Below, in pieces: positions 5,923 through 56,341 of a stretch of 64,000 nt of DNA. Position 1 is the stretch's first letter, and each line of letters opens with the position of its first letter. Below the pieces are notes generated by a model. It was not told where the DNA came from, ran no database searches, and saw only the letters and a list, made by a program, of their open reading frames with translations. The translations under genes and the position numbers were made by a program. The stretch comes from a virus (Duplodnaviria; Caudoviricetes). The stretch covers positions 6,365 to 70,364 of the IMG/VR virus record IMGVR_UViG_3300025390_000524. One strand, given 5' to 3'.

Positions 5923-6621
5923 TTAATAGAGTGGATAGGTTGAGGTTGAAATTGTCCTTAAAGCGTTAGTTAACCGTAATGCTTTAATAGAAAGGGTTTT
6001 GCCGTTGGTGGTAGATTGAATATTATGATCTCCGCCAATATATAGTGGAGAAGAGCTGTTGGTTGTCGTAGGATTTCCACCACCACTAGAAGGGCTATAG
6101 GAAGTGCCGTTAACGTACAGTGAAATTGTGCCAGCATTACTCAAGAACACTACATAGTAATCAGTATTAGCGCTATAGGCTGGTACTGAAGAAAATACAG
6201 CAGTTGAACGTCCAGAACTCGCATAAAAATAACCTAAATTGGCTGGACTATAACCAAACGCATATTCATCACTACCAGAAAACATACCGCTATTGCCTTT
6301 TACTAAAAAAGCAAAATTATCACCATAGACTGAGGTTGCTGAATAACTAACTTTGATCTCTAAAGTCCAACTAGAACCAAGACTATAACTAGCGTTAGTA
6401 CCATAACTGATCGAGGTATCACCAGCAGTCGAACTAAAATCTAAACTATTGTTACTAAGATTGGCTGATGCTCCAGCTCCAATTGAACTAATTGTGCCAA
6501 TTCCTCTAAGGTTGCCACAACTTCCATAGGTTTCTAAAATCACATTAGAGCCATAGGGGTCAGCACTCGTTCCAGACGAAGTTGCAGGATAGATGCCACC
6601 TAGCAAATTTACAGTTGTCAT
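5923..6621 (-). CDS. LamG/concanavalin-A-like virion protein
   Basis: 'SWTLEIKV', 'YYVVFLSNAGTISLYVNG', 'LYIGG' and 'IKALRLTNALR' form the LamG-like pattern; it lies in the tail operon. Confidence 0.6.
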   Translation of the reverse strand: MTTVNLLGGIYPATSSGTSADPYGSNVILETYGSCGNLRGIGTISSIGAGASANLSNNSLDFSSTAGDTSISYGTNASYSLGSSWTLEIKVSYSATSVYGDNFAFLVKGNSGMFSGSDEYAFGYSPANLGYFYASSGRSTAVFSSVPAYSANTDYYVVFLSNAGTISLYVNGTSYSPSSGGGNPTTTNSSSPLYIGGDHNIQSTTNGKTLSIKALRLTNALRTISTSTYPLY

Positions 6622-14358: not shown

Positions 14359-14961
14359 ATGTCTAGTTTAACGCCACAGGAAGCAGCCACATTACTTGGT
14401 GTAACGGTTAGAACCTTGCACAGATGGGAACTTGATGGAAAAATTAAGTCTACACGTACAGCTGGAGGTCATCGTCGATATGACATAATAGATTTAATTA
14501 GTAATAAATCTGATACTCAATTAACAGTAGGCTATGCTCGAGTTTCTAGTCATGATCAGAAAGAAGATCTAACTAGACAAGTTATAGTTTTAGAAAGTTA
14601 CTGTGCTAAACATGGCTGGGGATTTGAAATAATTCAAGATCTTGGCAGTGGAATGAACTACAAAAAGAAAGGACTTATTAGGTTAATTAAGTTAATTACG
14701 TCCTATCAAGTTGAACGGCTAGTTTTAACTCATAAGGATAGGTTACTTAGATTTGGGTCAGATTTGATTTTCACACTGTGCGAACAATTTGGAACAGAGG
14801 TAATAATTATCAATCGTTCTGATGACAGTACTTTTGAAGAAGATTTAGCCTCAGACGTACTCGAAATCATCACTGTATTTTCTGCTCGTTTGTATGGTAG
14901 TCGTTCTCATAAGAATAAAAAAATAGTAGAAGAATTGAAGGAGGTAGCAAGACAGTTGTGA
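14359..14961 (+). CDS. tnpA: IS607 transposase (MerR-HTH + serine recombinase)
   Basis: 'LTPQEAATLLGVTVRTLHRWE', 'VGYARVSSHDQKEDL', 'DRLLRFG'. Confidence 0.92.
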   Translation: MSSLTPQEAATLLGVTVRTLHRWELDGKIKSTRTAGGHRRYDIIDLISNKSDTQLTVGYARVSSHDQKEDLTRQVIVLESYCAKHGWGFEIIQDLGSGMNYKKKGLIRLIKLITSYQVERLVLTHKDRLLRFGSDLIFTLCEQFGTEVIIINRSDDSTFEEDLASDVLEIITVFSARLYGSRSHKNKKIVEELKEVARQL

Positions 14962-16070
14962 GAATCAGTTTTAAAACCGAACTAAAACTGAATAACTATC
15001 AAAAAACTCAACTGGCTAAACATGCAGGTGTAGCTCGTCATGCTTGGAATTGGGGATTAGATATATGTAAAAAAATTCTCAACTACAATCAAGAAAACCC
15101 AACAGAGAAATTAAGATTTCCATCAGCAATTGATCTGCATAAACTTTTAGTCAACTTGGTGAAGGCTGAAAACCCTTGGTACTATGAAGTATCCAAAACT
15201 AGTCCTCAATATGCGCTGAAACACCTATCAAATGCATTTTCTGATTTTTTTAGAAAAAAAACTATGAATGGTCGGCGGATGGGGTTTCCTAGATTCAAAC
15301 GTAAAGGTCAGCAGGATAGTTTTACCTTGGAAGGAACTATTAAAGTTAAACATCGATGTCTTCAATTACCAAAAATAGGAATAGTCAAGACTTACGAACG
15401 ATTGCCGCAAGGATTAACACCTAAAACAGCAGTAATTAGTCGAACTGCAGACCGTTGGTTTGTTTCTTTTAGCTATGAAATAGAGCCAAACACTACAGCT
15501 AAACTATTTGGTGCTTGCGGTGTAGACTTAGGCATTAAAACACTAGCTACCATAAGCACAGGTGCAACGTTTCCTAACCCCCAACCTTACCGTCAATTGC
15601 AATCCAAGTTAGCTAGGCTTCAAAAAACAGCTAGTCGTAAAGTTAAAGGCTCAAACAATCGACAAAAAGCAAATCTAAAAGTAGCTAAACAGCATGCAAA
15701 AATTGCCAACATTCGTAAAGATACGCTCAATAAATTAACTACCTATTTGGCTAAGAACCACAGTCAAGTAGTAATTGAAGATTTAAATGTATCGGGAATG
15801 TTATCTAATCACTGTTTGGCTAAGTCAATTGCAGATTTAGGTATGTATGAATTTCGTCGTCAATTAACTTATAAGTGTGACCTATACGGTAGCAAATTAA
15901 TTACTGTAAGTCGCTTTTTTCCAAGTTCTAAAACCTGTTCTTTTTGTGGACACATTCAAGATATATCGCTCAAAGAACGTGTTTTTAACTGTCAGCAATG
16001 CAATATGACTATTGATCGTGATTTGAATGCTGCGCGTAATTTAGAACATCAAGCTCTTATAGTAGCTTAA
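14958..16070 (+). CDS. tnpB: RNA-guided endonuclease TnpB (IS607)
   Basis: RuvC residues in 'GVDLGIK', 'VIEDLNV' and 'DRDLNAARN'; Zn finger CSFC..CQQC; all catalytic acids present. Confidence 0.92.
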   Translation: MRISFKTELKLNNYQKTQLAKHAGVARHAWNWGLDICKKILNYNQENPTEKLRFPSAIDLHKLLVNLVKAENPWYYEVSKTSPQYALKHLSNAFSDFFRKKTMNGRRMGFPRFKRKGQQDSFTLEGTIKVKHRCLQLPKIGIVKTYERLPQGLTPKTAVISRTADRWFVSFSYEIEPNTTAKLFGACGVDLGIKTLATISTGATFPNPQPYRQLQSKLARLQKTASRKVKGSNNRQKANLKVAKQHAKIANIRKDTLNKLTTYLAKNHSQVVIEDLNVSGMLSNHCLAKSIADLGMYEFRRQLTYKCDLYGSKLITVSRFFPSSKTCSFCGHIQDISLKERVFNCQQCNMTIDRDLNAARNLEHQALIVA

Positions 16071-35088: not shown

Positions 35089-35604
35089 TTATTTAGCTTT
35101 ATTTTCTATTGTACCAACTTCACTAAAATCATAAATCTTAGGAGGTTGTGCTGTTCCTACAATTAACGATTGTGTCAAGACATCATTAGAATCTTTGATA
35201 GAACGTTCAATAATTTCTTTTTGAGTTTTGCTCAGTCCTTCCAATGCCAAAAATCCACAACCAACAGCTTCGATTAAAACAGCATAGAGGTTGTTTAAGT
35301 CCCAAGAGAAAGTATCAATATTATCTAATGAACGGATTTTAAAAGATTCTGGAATACTATCTTTATTATTGCGTTTAAAAAATGTAGCAACCTTTCCAGA
35401 ACGAAATACTATAGAAGGTTTAATGTTTTCTGTAATTTTATAACTCAATATAAAATCATCTAGCAATTGCTTTAACGTTCCAGCTTTCTTAAAACCAATT
35501 AATGTAAAACTTTTATCTTCACTATTAAACGTAAAGGCAGCAGCCCCCACAATATTTATATTTTGAGATGACGTGCCAATACCAAAAATTAAAGCTTGCG
35601 ACAT
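35089..35604 (-). CDS. Hypothetical protein
   Basis: Likely start ATG 35604 (MSQALIFG); the longer ORF-track start runs into the last CRISPR repeat. Confidence 0.5.
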   Translation of the reverse strand: MSQALIFGIGTSSQNINIVGAAAFTFNSEDKSFTLIGFKKAGTLKQLLDDFILSYKITENIKPSIVFRSGKVATFFKRNNKDSIPESFKIRSLDNIDTFSWDLNNLYAVLIEAVGCGFLALEGLSKTQKEIIERSIKDSNDVLTQSLIVGTAQPPKIYDFSEVGTIENKAK

Positions 35605-35654
35605 AAAAAAAATAACCTTCCAAAGCTTGAAAGGTTTTGTTAATAAAATTGTAT

Positions 35655-36207
35655 CAAAAAAATAGGTCAAGAAGGCAACAGGTTAGAAACTCGCCTGCCT
35701 TAGCACGATCCGTTAACCAAGACCTATAGGCAGTTGCAAATAGGTTAAGAAGGCAACAGGTTGGAAACCAATCAACCTAGTTCTATAGATGCACTTTTGG
35801 CTAGGTTGCAAAAAGGTTAAGAAGGCAACAGGTTAGAAACTTTCTTTTGATTTGATTATTAGTTTCCTCATATTGGCTGTTGCAAAAAGGTTAAGAAGGC
35901 AACAGGTTAGAAACTCTATCATTGTCAGAGAAGTTGAACGTTCTAGTTCTTTAGTTGCAAATAGGTTAAGAAGGCAACAGGTTAGAAACGGTAGGATGTT
36001 GTCAATCTTGACATTATCTGATCCTGTTGCAAATAGGTCAAGAAGGCAACAGGTTAGAAACTATAATGCCAGGTTGGGGAATCTATCGATGAATAGCGTT
36101 GCAAATAGGTTAAGAAGGCAACAGGTTAGAAACTAGATGTTTTTTTTACAGATTGAGACTGAGTAGCAAGGGTTGCAAATAGGTCAAGAAGGCAACAGGT
36201 TGGAAAC
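35655..36207 (-). CRISPR. CRISPR array A: 8 repeats (36 bp; minus-strand consensus GTTTCTAACCTGTTGCCTTCTTAACCTATTTGCAAC), 7 spacers of 36-42 nt
   Basis: Repeats at 35655 (degenerate trailer), 35733, 35805, 35879, 35954, 36026, 36098 and 36172; spacers 42, 36, 38, 39, 36, 36, 38 nt. The degenerate repeat on the left and the leader on the right give minus orientation. Confidence 0.97.
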
Positions 36208-36345
36208 AGGGCAACATTTTCAAAAGCCATTTCCGAGGGGTAAGTTTTTAGATCGCTGAAATGAACTTTTAACTTTTTTAAAATGGCATCAAAGCCAGTC
36301 TGGGTAAAGAGTCGAGGGCTAGCACGAAAGAATAATAGTTTCATA
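36208..36345 (-). promoter_or_regulatory. Leader of array A
   Basis: Non-coding region adjacent to the undegenerated terminal repeat; minus strand '..TTTCAGCGATCTAAAAACTTACCCCTCGGAAATGGCTTTTGAAAATGTTGCCCT|GTTTC' resembles cyanobacterial chromosomal CRISPR leaders (from memory, not searched). Confidence 0.65.
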
Positions 36346-36377
36346 GGTTTAATTTGTTAAATTGATTGAGCTGTTAG

Positions 36378-36610
36378 CCCCTCTCTAAGAGAGTAAAGTG
36401 TGCCTCGTCAATGTTAAAAAAGTTTGTCATGTTAATTACACTGTTCCTACCTTAAAAGAACTGTTTAATAATTAACCATAGGGCTGGGGACTGGCTTGTA
36501 TCCCAAGGTATGATAGCTTTTTTAACGTAGTCAATTAAGACTTAGACTGGGATCCATAGTTCGTTAATAGCCGTTTGATTAGCTAAAAGAACTTTGCCTT
36601 CTTAACTTAT
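36378..36610 (-). ncRNA. omegaRNA/HEARO-derived tracrRNA-like scaffold, copy A (anti-repeat 36594-36610)
   Basis: Minus strand carries IscB omegaRNA hallmarks (CAGTCTAAG, CTACGTT, ACCTTGGGA..GCCAGTCCC, TTAAACAG, AACAGTG, TAACATTGACGAGGCACACTTTAC). Its 5' end ATAAGTTAAGAAGGCAA is complementary to the repeat; GATAAT -10 box at 36615-36620. Confidence 0.85.
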
Positions 36611-36660
36611 ACTTATTATCCCATAGTCAAAATTTGTACAAAAACCCTATTTTTTCACAT

Positions 36661-36685
36661 AAAAAAACCACCTATTAAAAGGTGG
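36661..36685 (-). terminator. Rho-independent terminator downstream of iscB
   Basis: Minus strand CCACCT-TTTAAT-AGGTGG followed by T7. Confidence 0.8.
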
Positions 36686-36708
36686 AGTTAGGTCAAGAAG
36701 GCAACAAG

Positions 36709-38082
36709 TTAGAAACTTGGAGGCGGTGACACAACTGGAGTTAAATTGATAGGTGGTTTGAAAGTATAAGCATAGCCATCTTTATGATGTAAAACTTGGC
36801 AGTATTCGTATTTAACGGCTTCAACTTTGCATCCTTTAGGTAAAGTAAAATTACCATCTTTTTTAATGGTGACTTTTCCTATTGCAGTTTTACCAGCGTA
36901 TTTGTTTTTTAAGTGAGCTGGAACAACGGCTTTAACTATATCCCCAGTTCTAAACTCAAAATATTTTCCTGTTTTGTTGTCAATAGCACTAAATGGACCT
37001 CTAAGTTTAGGTTTGGATATTGGTGTGCCATAAGCGTTGTTGCGTACCATTTGTCTACAACCATGCCCAAATGCTTTGATTTGTAATGGCTGAGTAGTCA
37101 AGAATGTTAGATTATCTATTTTTTTACCAACACAGGCAGCGTCTATCCAATGAGTTTTTGGTAACTTCAAAGTAATTCTGTTGAATTTGGTTTGTCCGCC
37201 TGAACCTACTTTTAAAGTTAATCCAGTTTCTTTTAATGAATTAAACAAAGCCCATCTGGTAGAGTTAACGGCTGCGGCATCTCTTAATGGAGCTTTAGCT
37301 TGTGCTTTTATCTTTTTTAGTAGTTCTGGTTTCTTTGCCAAAAATTCTTCAATTGGTCTATTGCTTTTAGTTTGATTGCATTTAACACAAGCCAACAATA
37401 AATTTGCTACTCGATTACTTCCACCTTTTGATTTTGGATGAATATGATCCACGTCAAACGGTACGTTTTTGATTCCACAATAGGCGCAAGTACGATTCCA
37501 TTTTTCTAAAAGGTATTCTTTGGTTTCGTATCCCGCCAAAGTGCCATGTTGATATTCAACTCCAGAAATTTCAGCATTTTCCATTTTTTGAGTATCAAAC
37601 TTGATTAATTCTTGAAAAAGAGCAGTGATTGGCGCAATTCTTCTTAGGCGTTCAACCCAAGTCATAGTGGTATAAACACGATGTTTTAAACTTGGTGCTA
37701 ACCAACCTTTGACTTCTGCTCTTTTCCTATTAAGAAAACGAGCTTTACGATATCTGGTTTTACGTCCCCTACGTCCACTTCTAATCGCTCTACGTTTTTG
37801 TAAAGCATCTTTTATAGCAAAACCACGATGCTCAATTTCAGCACCCCAAATAACATCTTTGCCATTGAGAATTGCCAATCCAGTAAACTTTGAACCTGGG
37901 TCTATTTTTAATGCCAATTCTGTTTTAACTTCATAAGTGATAGCTTGTTTTAAAATGATTGTAAAAGGATACAATTTTAAAACTGCAGCTTTACCAGAAT
38001 TTAGTAACTTTCGTGCGCGTGAAGGTTTAACTGGTGCTAATGGTTTTTTATTAGCGTCAACACAAAATATATAGTTAGACAT
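36709..38082 (-). CDS. iscB: IscB RNA-guided endonuclease (RRXRR/PLMP + split RuvC + HNH), CRISPR-associated
   Basis: PLMP 'KKPLAPVKPSRARKLL'; RuvC-I 'KIDPGSKFTG'; Arg-rich bridge helix 'RRAIRSGRRGRKTRYRKARFLNR'; RuvC-II 'FQELIKFD'; HNH 'CAYCG..DHIHPKSKGGSNRVANLLLACVKCNQTK'; RuvC-III 'THWIDAACVG'. Confidence 0.95.
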   Translation of the reverse strand: MSNYIFCVDANKKPLAPVKPSRARKLLNSGKAAVLKLYPFTIILKQAITYEVKTELALKIDPGSKFTGLAILNGKDVIWGAEIEHRGFAIKDALQKRRAIRSGRRGRKTRYRKARFLNRKRAEVKGWLAPSLKHRVYTTMTWVERLRRIAPITALFQELIKFDTQKMENAEISGVEYQHGTLAGYETKEYLLEKWNRTCAYCGIKNVPFDVDHIHPKSKGGSNRVANLLLACVKCNQTKSNRPIEEFLAKKPELLKKIKAQAKAPLRDAAAVNSTRWALFNSLKETGLTLKVGSGGQTKFNRITLKLPKTHWIDAACVGKKIDNLTFLTTQPLQIKAFGHGCRQMVRNNAYGTPISKPKLRGPFSAIDNKTGKYFEFRTGDIVKAVVPAHLKNKYAGKTAIGKVTIKKDGNFTLPKGCKVEAVKYEYCQVLHHKDGYAYTFKPPINLTPVVSPPPSF

Positions 38083-38098
38083 TTGCTGAAATCAATTG

Positions 38099-38525
38099 GT
38101 TGCATTTAGGTCAAAAAGGCAACAGGTTGGAAACTTGGTTATTTTGGAAACTTGTTTGTGTTGCATTTAAGGTCAAAAAGGCAACAGGTTGGAAACGGCA
38201 GCAATACTGAAAGAATAAGTGTTTGGTTTTTAAGTTGCAAATAGGTCAAAAAGGCAACAGGTTGGAAACTTCGTGAACAGCTGGTTGCAAATAGGTCAAA
38301 AAGGCAACAGGTTGGAAACTGGGTTCAGTTGTCAACCGTTTTATCCAAAAATTTGCTAGTTGCAAATAGGTTAAGAAGGCAACAGTTTGGAAACTTTTAT
38401 CTCGTGGAGAATTAACCCTCGTGATTTATCAAGTTGCAAATAGGTCAAAAAGGCAACAGGTTGGAAACATTTTCAGTGATAAAGATCACGTTGCAAATAG
38501 GTTAAGAAGGCAACAGGTTGGAAAC
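38099..38525 (-). CRISPR. CRISPR array B: 7 repeats, 6 spacers (25, 37, 14, 39, 38, 21 nt), directly upstream of iscB
   Basis: Repeats at 38099, 38160, 38234, 38284, 38359, 38433 and 38490; dominant minus-strand variant GTTTCCAACCTGTTGCCTTTTTGACCTATTTGCAAC. Confidence 0.95.
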
Positions 38526-38555
38526 CTCTTAAAAAAAATTGATTGAGCTTTTGGC

Positions 38556-38787
38556 TCCTCTCTAAGAGAGTAAAGTGTGCCTCGTCAATGTTAAAAAAGT
38601 TTGTCATGCTAATTACACTGTTCCTACCTTGAAAGAACTGTTTAATAATTAACCATAGGGCTTGGAACTGGCTTGTATCCCAAGGTATGATAGCTTTTTT
38701 AACGTAGTCAGTTAAGACTTAGACTGATTTCCCTAGTTCGTTAATAGCCGTTTAATTAGCTAAAAGAACTTTGCCTTTTCAACCTAT
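38556..38787 (-). ncRNA. omegaRNA/HEARO-derived tracrRNA-like scaffold, copy B (anti-repeat 38771-38787)
   Basis: Near-identical to copy A. 5' ATAGGTTGAAAAGGCAA pairs with array-B repeats; GGAAAT (38727-38732) pairs with the repeat 5' GTTTCC; GATAAT -10 box at 38792-38797. Confidence 0.88.
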
Positions 38788-38837
38788 ACTTATTATCTCA
38801 TAGTCAAAAATTGCACAAAACACACCATTTTTCACAT

Positions 38838-38861
38838 AAAAAAACCACCTACAAAGGGTGG
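38838..38861 (-). terminator. Rho-independent terminator after array C
   Basis: CCACC..GGTGG hairpin followed by T7; paralog of 36661-36685. Confidence 0.7.
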
Positions 38862-38864
38862 AGT

Positions 38865-39087
38865 TAGGTTAAAAAGGCAACAGGTTGGAAATATCCTTCT
38901 CGTTGCAAATAGGTCAAAAAGGCAACGGTTGAAAACTGGGTGTCCCACCAGAATTTTTACACTGTCCGTTGCAAATAGGTTAAGAAGGCAACAGGTTGGA
39001 AATATCCTTCTCGTTGCAAATAGGTCAAAAAGACAACGGTTGGAAACTAATAATCGTTAATAGGTCAAGAAGGCAACGGTTGGAAAT
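38865..39087 (-). CRISPR. Degenerate CRISPR array C: 5 repeats/partial repeats, spacers of 9, 31, 9 and ~8 nt
   Basis: Repeats at ~38865 (partial), 38902, 38968, 39013 and ~39056; the 9-nt spacer ATCCTTCTC occurs twice. Confidence 0.8.
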
Positions 39088-39114
39088 TACTCTAGAAAGA
39101 ATACTATTTTAATT

Positions 39115-54968: not shown

Positions 54969-56341
54969 TAGAAACCCCGTCGTTCACGACGGCTTTATAG
55001 AAGTGGATGAAATCTGCCAGTATGAACTGTCACTAAATACTAGCAATCTTACAAAAGATATTTTAGAATGTAAACATGGAAAAAGCCTATCGCTACCGTT
55101 TCTATCCCACTAGCGAGCAAGAATCACTCTTGCGCAGGACAATGGGTTGTGCACGGCTAGTCTATAACAAGGCTCTAGCTGTTCGGACTGAGGCTTGGTA
55201 CGAACGACAAGAGCGAGTTGGCTATAGCCAAACGTCCTCCATGTTGACAAATTGGAAACAAGACTCCGCTCTTGAGTTTCTGAATGAAGTTAGCTGTGTT
55301 CCTCTTCAGCAAGGACTTAGACATCTCCAAGCCGCATTTACTAACTTCTTTTCTGGTCGGGCAAAATATCCCAACTTTAAGAACAAACATAATGGCGGTA
55401 GTGCTGAATTTACTAAGTCTGCTTTTCGGTGGAGAGATGGGCAAGTCTTTTTGGCTAAATGTGCTGAGGCTTTGCCAATTCGTTGGAGTCGCAAGATTCC
55501 CGAAGGTTGCACACCCTCGACTATTACCGTCAAGCTGACACCATCTGGTCGCTGGTTTGTATCCTTGAGGGTGGATGACCATACTGTTAAGCCATTTCCA
55601 AAGGTCGATGTCTTGAATGGACCGCTCATGGGAGAAACCACCAAGACTTTGCCTGTCCACAAATCGATTGGTTTGGACGTTGGCATAAATAGTTTGATTG
55701 CCACTAGTGACGGTGATAAGATAGCCAATCCCAAGCACTTTAAACAGCTTCGGAAGAAGCTGAGACGGGTACAGAAAGCACTGTCTCGAAAGCAAAAGGG
55801 AAGTAACAACAGACACAAAACTAGATTGCAAGTAGCTAAAGTCCATGCACAGATAACTGATGCTAGAAAAGATTTTTTGCATAAGCTGACAACTCAACTG
55901 GTTCGTGAAAACCAAACGATCGTAGTTGAAGATCTGGCTATCAAAAACATGGTCAAGAACCATAAACTTGCACTTGCGATTAGCGATGCAAGTTGGGGAG
56001 AATTGATTCGTCAACTTGCATATAAATGCGAATGGTATGGGCGAGAATTGATTAAAATTGACCGATGGTTTCCTAGTTCTAAAAGGTGTGGAAACTGTGG
56101 ACATATCGTAAATAAGCTGTCGCTGAATATCAGAGAGTGGGAATGTCCGAAATGTGGAACTAACCATGACAGAGATGTGAATGCGGCAAATAACATTTTG
56201 GCGGCAGGGCTTGCCGTTTCAGTCTGTGGAGCAACTGTAAGACCCGAAGAGAGTAAGTCTCGGAAGGCTGGTGTTTTGAAGCAGAAACCTAAATAGCGAT
56301 GTTTAGGAATCCCCGTACCTTTAGGTCGGGGAGGATGTCAA
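54969..56341 (+). mobile_element. Non-autonomous IS200/IS605-family (IS1341-like) element, tnpB only
   Basis: Left-end hairpin CCGTCG-TTCA-CGACGG; right end 'GGAATCCCCG..CGGGGAGGATGTCAA'; no tnpA. Confidence 0.88.
55076..56296 (+). CDS. tnpB: RNA-guided endonuclease TnpB (IS200/IS605)
   Basis: 'AYRYRFYPT', 'GLDVGI', 'VVEDLA', Zn finger CGNC..CPKC, 'DRDVNAANN'. Confidence 0.93.
   Translation: MEKAYRYRFYPTSEQESLLRRTMGCARLVYNKALAVRTEAWYERQERVGYSQTSSMLTNWKQDSALEFLNEVSCVPLQQGLRHLQAAFTNFFSGRAKYPNFKNKHNGGSAEFTKSAFRWRDGQVFLAKCAEALPIRWSRKIPEGCTPSTITVKLTPSGRWFVSLRVDDHTVKPFPKVDVLNGPLMGETTKTLPVHKSIGLDVGINSLIATSDGDKIANPKHFKQLRKKLRRVQKALSRKQKGSNNRHKTRLQVAKVHAQITDARKDFLHKLTTQLVRENQTIVVEDLAIKNMVKNHKLALAISDASWGELIRQLAYKCEWYGRELIKIDRWFPSSKRCGNCGHIVNKLSLNIREWECPKCGTNHDRDVNAANNILAAGLAVSVCGATVRPEESKSRKAGVLKQKPK

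Follow-up and report, generated by a model that had tools for sequence, protein, structure and literature searches.

A probable CRISPR-associated IscB with a predicted split omegaRNA in a phage of a filamentous cyanobacterium

Organization of the locus

We analysed a 64,000-nt stretch of viral DNA (the window), positions 6,365 to 70,364 of the 70,364-bp IMG/VR provirus record IMGVR_UViG_3300025390_000524 (CheckV completeness 81%), in which a gene for the predicted nuclease IscB lies among three arrays of CRISPR (short palindromic repeats that are clustered and regularly interspaced) and two scaffolds that resemble omegaRNA. From the sequence evidence presented below, we consider it likely that a phage of a filamentous cyanobacterium carries here a CRISPR-associated IscB effector that uses a split omegaRNA together with arrays. 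The locus comprises the following features:

35614–35636, minus strand: terminator-like hairpin T3, after array A
35655–36207, minus strand: array A, 7 spacers of 36–42 nt between 8 repeats, the last of them degenerate
36208–36392, minus strand: leader of 185 nt, from scaffold A to array A
36393–36620, minus strand: scaffold A, the second omegaRNA of the kind that could pair with the repeat, with GATAAT box 36615–36620, anti-repeat 36594–36610 and HEARO core 36393–36555
36668–36685, minus strand: terminator-like hairpin T2, 3' of iscB
36681–36716, minus strand: degenerate repeat, which overlaps the 3' end of iscB and provides its stop codon
36709–38082, minus strand: iscB, 457 amino acids (aa), with a PLMP-like N-terminus, split RuvC, Arg-rich bridge helix and HNH
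38099–38525, minus strand: array B, with 7 repeats and 6 spacers of 14–39 nt, ending 16 nt upstream of the iscB ATG
38570–38797, minus strand: scaffold B, a similar omegaRNA, with GATAAT box 38792–38797, anti-repeat 38771–38787 and HEARO core 38570–38769
38845–38861, minus strand: terminator-like hairpin T1, CCACCCTTTGTAGGTGG and then a run of T
38857–39089, minus strand: array C, with 5 degenerate repeats and "spacers" of 4–29 nt, in the 3' untranslated region (UTR) of the terminase gene; its last repeat enters T1

All three arrays share a 36-nt repeat, which reads GTTTCyAACCTGTTGCCTTyTTrACCTATTTGCAAC on the minus strand. The arrays lie on the strand of iscB, and array A begins ~500 nt downstream of the gene. 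Read along that strand, the order is array C, T1, a GATAAT box with scaffold B, array B, iscB, the degenerate repeat, T2, a GATAAT box with scaffold A, the leader, array A and T3. No terminator is predicted between scaffold B or array B and iscB, and the three are on one strand. An earlier, sequence-only reading of this DNA had described three arrays of one 36-bp repeat, the terminators and this order of elements, all of which we found in place. It had also claimed promoters; a GATAAT box is conserved, but a consensus scan does not pick the promoters up, and we infer them from the box.

We also considered the opposite, plus-strand orientation of the arrays, which follows from the rule that GAAAC stands at the 3' end of a repeat. 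It was rejected as the main orientation, since the minus strand accommodates iscB and the scaffolds as well as the leader and the degenerate terminal repeat.

Because array C occupies the 3' UTR of the gene for the large terminase, terminase transcripts would contain repeats that could pair with the scaffolds, a possible means of regulation.

The IscB protein

The window IscB contains the Pfam domains RRXRR (PF14239, 8e-68, residues 5–180) and HNH (PF01844, 1e-12), and it matches solved IscB structures with PDB hits of 1e-34 to 1e-23. In an alignment with OgeuIscB (7xht), D61, E158, H213/N236 and H311/D314 occupy the RuvC and HNH catalytic positions. The 457-aa IscB with a full RuvC and HNH catalytic set that had been read from the sequence is therefore confirmed by both Pfam and the alignment. 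Compared with its only close homologue (see below), iscB has a ratio of non-synonymous to synonymous substitution rates (dN/dS) of 0.29, and thus is under purifying selection. The 70-kb record has no match to the Y1 transposase TnpA (PF01797), although a search aimed at transposon ends was not made.

A predicted split guide RNA

The Rfam model HEARO (RF02033, gathering score 83) matches the minus strand at 38570–38769 with 119 bits and at 36393–36555 with 118 bits. Both scores exceed the gathering score, which bears out the two omegaRNA-like scaffolds of the sequence-only reading. The scaffolds belong to a duplicated module of ~300 nt (36359–36658 and 38536–38835) whose copies are 92% identical. 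In neither scaffold is the P1 element of the HEARO model complete: model positions 2–51 are reduced to 4 nt in scaffold A and are badly aligned in scaffold B.

The 5' 17 nt of each scaffold form an anti-repeat, the reverse complement of repeat nt 13–29. Both scaffolds have this inverted partial repeat precisely at their 5' ends, and all variants of the locus keep it. The 17-bp repeat:anti-repeat duplex has a computed energy of -24.1 kcal/mol for B with B and -21.0 kcal/mol for A with A, while shuffled sequences give approximately -10 ± 3 kcal/mol (z ~-4). In two of the variants described below, L025 and L026, the A anti-repeat complements the A repeats perfectly (17/17).

When the repeat is co-folded with the 5' domain of scaffold B, the model contains two helices and an internal hairpin. 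The long helix is that of repeat and anti-repeat, and the outer helix is formed by repeat nt 1–6 and the strand that directly precedes the pseudoknot strand CAGUCUAAG. In the model, this is the three-way topology of the HEARO P1 domain. Since the co-fold reproduces that topology, the predicted break in the omegaRNA falls in the loop of the inner P1 hairpin, such that the CRISPR RNA (crRNA) would comprise the guide and the 5' half, and the scaffold would comprise the 3' half and the remainder. The computed folds thus support a role of the scaffolds as partners of the repeats, similar to trans-activating CRISPR RNA (tracrRNA).

We propose that a crRNA consisting of a spacer followed by a repeat is derived from the minus-strand arrays and would join a scaffold to rebuild the three-way P1 of a canonical omegaRNA. 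Pairing of repeat nt 13–29 with the anti-repeat, and of repeat nt 1–6 with the strand before the pseudoknot, would position the 3' end of the spacer as the guide. Scaffold B, array B and iscB would form one transcription unit, and scaffold A, the leader and array A a second. RNA processing, cleavage and the use of a target-adjacent motif (TAM) are predictions of this scheme.

Natural variants and spacer turnover

The locus was sampled in six variants, in which the architecture is kept. Related copies are on a metagenome scaffold, L016, and on five Joint Genome Institute (JGI) metagenome contigs, L022–L026, that were found by a repeat scan and some of which come from Trout Bog Lake. L016 is syntenic with the window, carries arrays of the same repeat family and encodes the only close IscB homologue (93% identical). 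The five contigs all have the same scaffolds, and the overlapping parts of the locus that they cover jointly reproduce the architecture of the window.

The window has 7 array A spacers, L023 has 9, and L025 and L026 have 8 apiece; these spacers are 35–42 nt long, and not one is shared. The flanks of the array (470 nt upstream and 600 nt downstream) are 98.3–99.5% identical among the window, L025 and L026; the upstream 470 nt, scaffold A plus leader, are 98–99% identical in L025 and L026. Since array A shares no spacers between variants with near-identical flanks, we conclude from these sequences that the arrays are live and that spacers are gained and lost in nature. The arrays had been read as multi-spacer arrays from the start, and they are indeed live, with many spacers.

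In array B, the iscB-proximal spacers are common to the window, L022 and L024, and the scaffold-proximal ones vary, a polarity that would be expected for acquisition at the leader end. Array C is conserved, and degenerate, in L022, L024 and L016. Scaffold B and array B are deleted in L016, where iscB is preceded only by what remains of them, the promoter box and an anti-repeat that has decayed (L016:900–1075; duplex -5 kcal/mol); a 100-N scaffolding gap covers the stretch after iscB.

No cas1, cas2 or cas4 was found in the 70-kb record. Since the phage record has neither cas1 nor cas2, the spacers are probably loaded by host adaptation proteins acting in trans. Such a route has a parallel in type IV-A3 systems, which acquire spacers via the type I machinery of the host, type IV systems being devoid of adaptation genes (PMC11656645; bioRxiv 10.1101/2023.06.23.546257).

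Spacer targets

A 35-nt array B spacer of L024 is a copy of the antisense strand of iscB:

37931–37965, plus strand: site in iscB that matches the L024 spacer, 32/35 in the window

The spacer matches the iscB copy of L016 at 34/35 positions and those of L024 itself and of L026 at 31/35. On its 3' side the protospacer is flanked by AGGATAC, and the spacer is mismatched near its 3' end to every sampled target. Since it matches a sister-phage iscB at 34/35, the spacer appears to have been acquired from phage DNA of this lineage, which fits a conflict between sister phages. The locus had initially been read as a nuclease system probably directed against competing phages or plasmids. The iscB-derived spacer agrees with the sister-phage part of this idea, but no spacer other than this one could be assigned a target in the searches below, those of the window itself included.

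In BLAST searches, window arrays A and B and the arrays of L023, L025 and L026 gave chance-level matches only among 50,697 phage records, as did window arrays A and B among 72,556 plasmids. Against the 401 cyanobacterial genomes of the order, the arrays gave partial matches only (best 30/33 with a gap, ~0.07 expected), and against 144 Microcoleaceae genomes they gave none. Spacer A7 has no exact 20-mer match in IMG/VR, and no self-targeting was found within the record. Exact 20-mer matches in IMG/VR to the 3' ends of spacers A2 (L019) and A3 (L020 and L021) were treated as chance, because the other 16 nt agree at only 2/16 and 3/16 positions and because L020 is a phage of 52% GC.

These results bear on the possibility that the locus is a selfish homing or marker-exclusion cassette that cuts co-infecting sister phages with another copy, or none, and thereby spreads itself and its neighbours, rather than a broad defence. 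The sole identified protospacer is in a sister-phage iscB, the locus lies between two conserved genes (the terminase gene and a conserved open reading frame (ORF)) as it does in L016, and a related phage, G520, has no match to the IscB locus in the corresponding interval. Homing by phage nucleases is also well established (PMC13565253). Nevertheless, ~35 further regular spacers have no match in this phage or in its sampled relatives, and the iscB-derived spacer differs near its 3' end from all sampled targets. We regard such a cassette as unlikely.

Relatives of the IscB

The IscBs of the window and L016 form a long branch (0.44) within a clade of filamentous-cyanobacterial IscBs that has 95% support in the SH-like approximate likelihood ratio test (SH-aLRT) and that includes IscBs from two phages, one of Microcoleus and one of Nodularia. 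Matches other than L016 are at most 60% identical, are 421–434 aa long and are mostly named from filamentous cyanobacteria. Of the ten relatives inspected, four are on phage records, one is on an IMG/VR contig and five are at genome loci. None has an array beside iscB, and eight have one HEARO in cis; the other two, L027 and L028, have no HEARO above the gathering score.

CRISPR-associated IscBs as a kind have been known since 2021, when they were reportedly described by Altae-Tran et al. (Science 374:57), and they are proposed intermediates between transposon-borne IscB and Cas9. DelIscB is a tested CRISPR-associated IscB that uses a direct-repeat (DR)/anti-repeat non-coding RNA (ncRNA), the design of which has been described and truncated (Zhang et al. 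2025, PMC12660989). The two systems are alike in layout. Both proteins have 457 aa. In both loci, adaptation genes are absent, the ncRNA upstream of the ORF contains repeats and spacers as well as an anti-repeat that is fused to a scaffold of the omegaRNA type, and a DR:anti-repeat duplex takes the place of the P1 stem-loop. The proteins, in contrast, are not closely related: the window IscB is more than 60% identical to one metagenome copy only, and 0/18 published residue identities of DelIscB fit it. Identity with DelIscB is thus ruled out, as the published residues (C12, Y37, Q85, S97, W117 and others) fit neither the window IscB nor any of 270 relatives. This locus further differs in its phage carriage, its two scaffolds and three arrays, its natural spacer turnover and the co-residence of a type IV module (see below), whereas its activity is predicted only.

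As far as the published residues of DelIscB allow a comparison, a separate origin of the two systems is plausible, because the window IscB is nested among IscBs of the insertion sequence (IS) type, the inspected relatives are canonical and the DelIscB residues are unmatched. The independent IscB-to-CRISPR transition that had been suggested for this locus is to this extent plausible on the tree and the residues with respect to DelIscB, the CRISPR-associated IscB that was compared.

Two relatives deserve mention. The Nodularia phage vB_NspS-kac68v162 (L012:3819–5664) has an IscB that is 55% identical to that of the window and a HEARO without P1 that scores 82.7 bits, just below the gathering score, and it has no array; a Y1-type transposase gene lies downstream of its iscB and an IS607 element upstream. 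In an Okeania metagenome-assembled genome, host-type CRISPR repeats (L027:406–519; GTTTCAATCCCTAAGTAGGAATTTGGTTTGGGAAAGA) are found 2 kb upstream of an IS-type IscB, a placement that is probably coincidental.

The phage and its host

The window contains phage genes for tail and baseplate proteins, a 1777-aa tape measure protein, PhoH, dUTPase, ThyX, DnaN, the large terminase, ribonucleotide reductase (RNR), an exonuclease and thymidylate kinase, as well as a weak match to a tyrosine integrase. The carrier is probably a temperate phage. That a CRISPR-associated IscB is carried on a phage, as was claimed at the outset, is borne out by these genes and by the provirus class of the record in IMG/VR. 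The IscB locus lies between the terminase gene and a conserved ORF, and likewise in L016.

Two further mobile-element loci lie in the window:

14359–16070: IS607-type serine-recombinase tnpA/tnpB pair
55076–56296: solo tnpB, 80–86% identical to Microcoleus TnpBs, with copies of 95–99% identity in metagenomes

With iscB, the IS607 tnpB and the solo tnpB, the phage carries three nuclease genes of the OMEGA class. The nearest relatives of the terminase are in Nodularia and Cylindrospermopsis phages, and none were found in IMG/VR. Since the solo TnpB, the terminase and IscB are all closest to cyanobacterial or cyanophage relatives, the host is probably a filamentous cyanobacterium. The earlier statement that neither tnpA nor other cas genes occur nearby holds for the surroundings of the locus, but not beyond them, as the window has the IS607 tnpA and the same record has type IV cas genes.

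A type IV module in the same record

The part of the record outside the window (L018, 6.4 kb) lies ~38 kb from the IscB locus and encodes a type IV module:

L018:1–1158: Csf2/Cas7 (PADLOC 7e-42)
L018:1155–1763: Cmx6-type Cas6 (2e-56; Pfam 6e-53; NCBIfam TIGR02807 above cut-off)
L018:1760–2443: Csf3/Cas5 (PADLOC 3e-44)
L018:2417–3079, minus strand: Csf1, Cas8-like (PADLOC 3.5e-24)
L018:3386–4075, minus strand: CysH/PAPS-reductase-like protein (PAPS_reduct)

Judged by its genes, this is a type IV effector module of IV-B flavour, unusual in having a Cas6. There is no CRISPR array in the 6.4 kb that hold the csf genes, and the only arrays of the record adjoin IscB. The sequence-only reading had treated the IscB locus as a stand-alone system, a view left incomplete or unsupported by the presence in the same record of a type IV module with Cas6 and no adjoining array.

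Homologues of Csf2 with 48–72% identity occur on six IMG/VR phage contigs. Two near-complete phages, G520 and G523, have the module and genes along most of the length of this phage in common with it, and on this sequence comparison the module is genuinely phage-borne. Neither IscB nor this repeat was found in G520 or G523. The Cas6 homologues of cyanobacterial genomes are in I-MYXAN loci with Cas4-Cas1 and Cas2.

The complete phage G523 (89.7 kb) has a five-repeat array (L064:17193–17512; repeat GTCACCTAACACATCACTTGTCATAGCTTTGGTAAC; spacers of ~35 nt) that lies ~30 kb from its csf genes.

The arrays beside IscB were probably class 1 (type IV) arrays that an incoming IscB co-opted as it evolved an anti-repeat, because the same phage has a type IV module and Cas6 without an adjoining array. 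In this, the most economical history, the phage would first have had type IV arrays, filled in trans by the host. An IscB element would then have arrived from a cyanobacterial genome, and its omegaRNA would have become the tracrRNA for the resident repeat. The arrays may serve both effectors still. We advance only tentatively, as a possibility that we would not favour, the full version of this idea, in which one set of phage arrays is read both by the type IV Csf complex, via the phage Cas6, and by IscB, via its tracr-like omegaRNA, and in which the transition took place by capture of a class 1 array. If true, the IscB-to-CRISPR transition would have occurred by such a capture and not by growth of an array from the omegaRNA. 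Cas6 enzymes usually cut 8 nt before the 3' end of the repeat. If the phage Cas6 cuts there, the crRNA would carry an 8-nt handle before the spacer and 28 nt of repeat after it; almost the whole anti-repeat-pairing segment (nt 13–29) would lie within this 28-nt 3' tag, and the spacers would come from host type I adaptation proteins in trans.

The same module also raises the possibility that the arrays are purely type IV and processed by Cas6, with IscB and its omegaRNA an IS-derived passenger and the anti-repeat an accident, a regulator or a decoy. Besides the Cas6-containing module without an array of its own, the spacers of 35–42 nt and the 36-nt repeat are typical of class 1, G523 combines a type IV module and an array with no IscB, and the nearest relatives of the window IscB are in ordinary IS elements. 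However, a passenger omegaRNA would not explain why both scaffolds are without P1 when the repeat alone can rebuild it, or why the inverted partial repeat at their 5' ends is kept in all variants. Scaffold, array and iscB are also co-stranded, with no terminator predicted before iscB; the gene is under purifying selection, and the record has no Y1 TnpA. Finally, DelIscB shows that an RNA of this design is workable (PMC12660989). Purely type IV arrays are thus an improbable explanation.

Evaluation of the proposed system

Several points weigh against a CRISPR-associated IscB with a split omegaRNA. The support for this locus comes from sequence and computed folds, and the record is only 81% complete according to CheckV. 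In the models, the outer helix of scaffold A has just 4 bp, ~6–9 nt of the repeat are unpaired, and few of the 12 repeat nt that separate the guide from the long duplex are paired. Arrays B and C have very short spacers and degenerate repeats, and part of the locus is therefore decaying. For the spacers of the window, no protospacers were found in the phage, plasmid, IMG/VR and cyanobacterial genome collections. A host array with this repeat was found neither in viral contigs or 185,579 species genomes (exact 22-mer) nor in 401 genomes of the order (BLAST) or 144 Microcoleaceae genomes (pattern search). The homology of the repeat to those of the G523 array and of I-MYXAN loci is too weak to be accepted (p 0.01–0.05) and does not discriminate orientation.

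In the search for host arrays, a cluster of pattern hits in genome G252 was rejected as a CRISPR array, as it is a tandem repeat with a 102-nt period.

Arrays B and C with their degenerate repeats and short spacers of 4–27 nt, the loss of scaffold B and array B from L016 and the lack of adaptation genes might suggest a decaying relic with no present function, but this is highly improbable given an intact ORF with a dN/dS of 0.29, scaffolds with 92% identity between the two copies and near-identity among variants, and a regular array A with full turnover between near-identical genomes. We therefore retain a CRISPR-associated IscB with a split omegaRNA as the likely reading of the locus, and suggest that it would be used in conflict with other mobile elements, sister phages included.

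Comparison with known systems

The IscB-omegaRNA elements of the IS200/IS605 type in filamentous cyanobacteria and their phages (Microcoleus, Nostoc, Scytonema), for which OgeuIscB (7XHT/7UTN) is the structural reference, belong to the same family and clade (55–60% identity) and share the HEARO core. Each of these elements relies on a single cis omegaRNA that bears its own 5' guide; they lack arrays and often encode TnpA. In this locus, by contrast, P1 is split off into the repeat, the guides would be derived from arrays and there is no Y1 TnpA.

Type II Cas9 is likewise an effector with RuvC and HNH, with many-spacer arrays and a crRNA of spacer then repeat that pairs with the 5' anti-repeat of a trans RNA. 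Compared with Cas9, the window IscB has no recognition (REC) lobe and only 457 aa, its RNA scaffold is large, and cas1, cas2 and csn2 are absent.

The CRISPR systems carried by phages include the array of cyanophage N-1, the type I-F system of ICP1 and CasPhi of huge phages, with spacers presumably directed against competitors or host elements. The effector here differs from these in being an IscB with an omegaRNA-derived tracrRNA.

The second module of this phage resembles type IV-B systems in that it lies on a mobile element, encodes Csf1, Csf2, Csf3 and a CysH-like protein but no adaptation proteins, and presumably acts in conflicts between elements. Type IV-B is normally without Cas6 and without an array (PMC7038947, PMC8175902, PMC11656645), whereas here a Cmx6-type Cas6 is present and the record has its only arrays ~38 kb off, beside IscB.

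New in this instance are the separate cyanobacterial lineage, the twin scaffolds, the spacer turnover without adaptation genes and the co-residence with type IV. The six variants are a natural population sample and show arrays that are clearly live in an element devoid of adaptation genes. The locus also points to a possible route of transition, in which a phage with a class 1 (type IV) array receives an IscB element next to that array, and the element evolves an anti-repeat. It adds a compact predicted nuclease of 457 aa with a defined crRNA/tracrRNA design, from a lineage apart from that of DelIscB. IscB would thereby join the CRISPR-type weapons carried by phages, among which it is unmentioned in a 2024 review of CRISPR in mobile elements.

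A neighbouring ORF

The 193-aa ORF listed at 35089–35670 overlaps the last repeat of array A. Its likely start is the ATG near 35604, as in L016, and with this start the ORF would clear the array.

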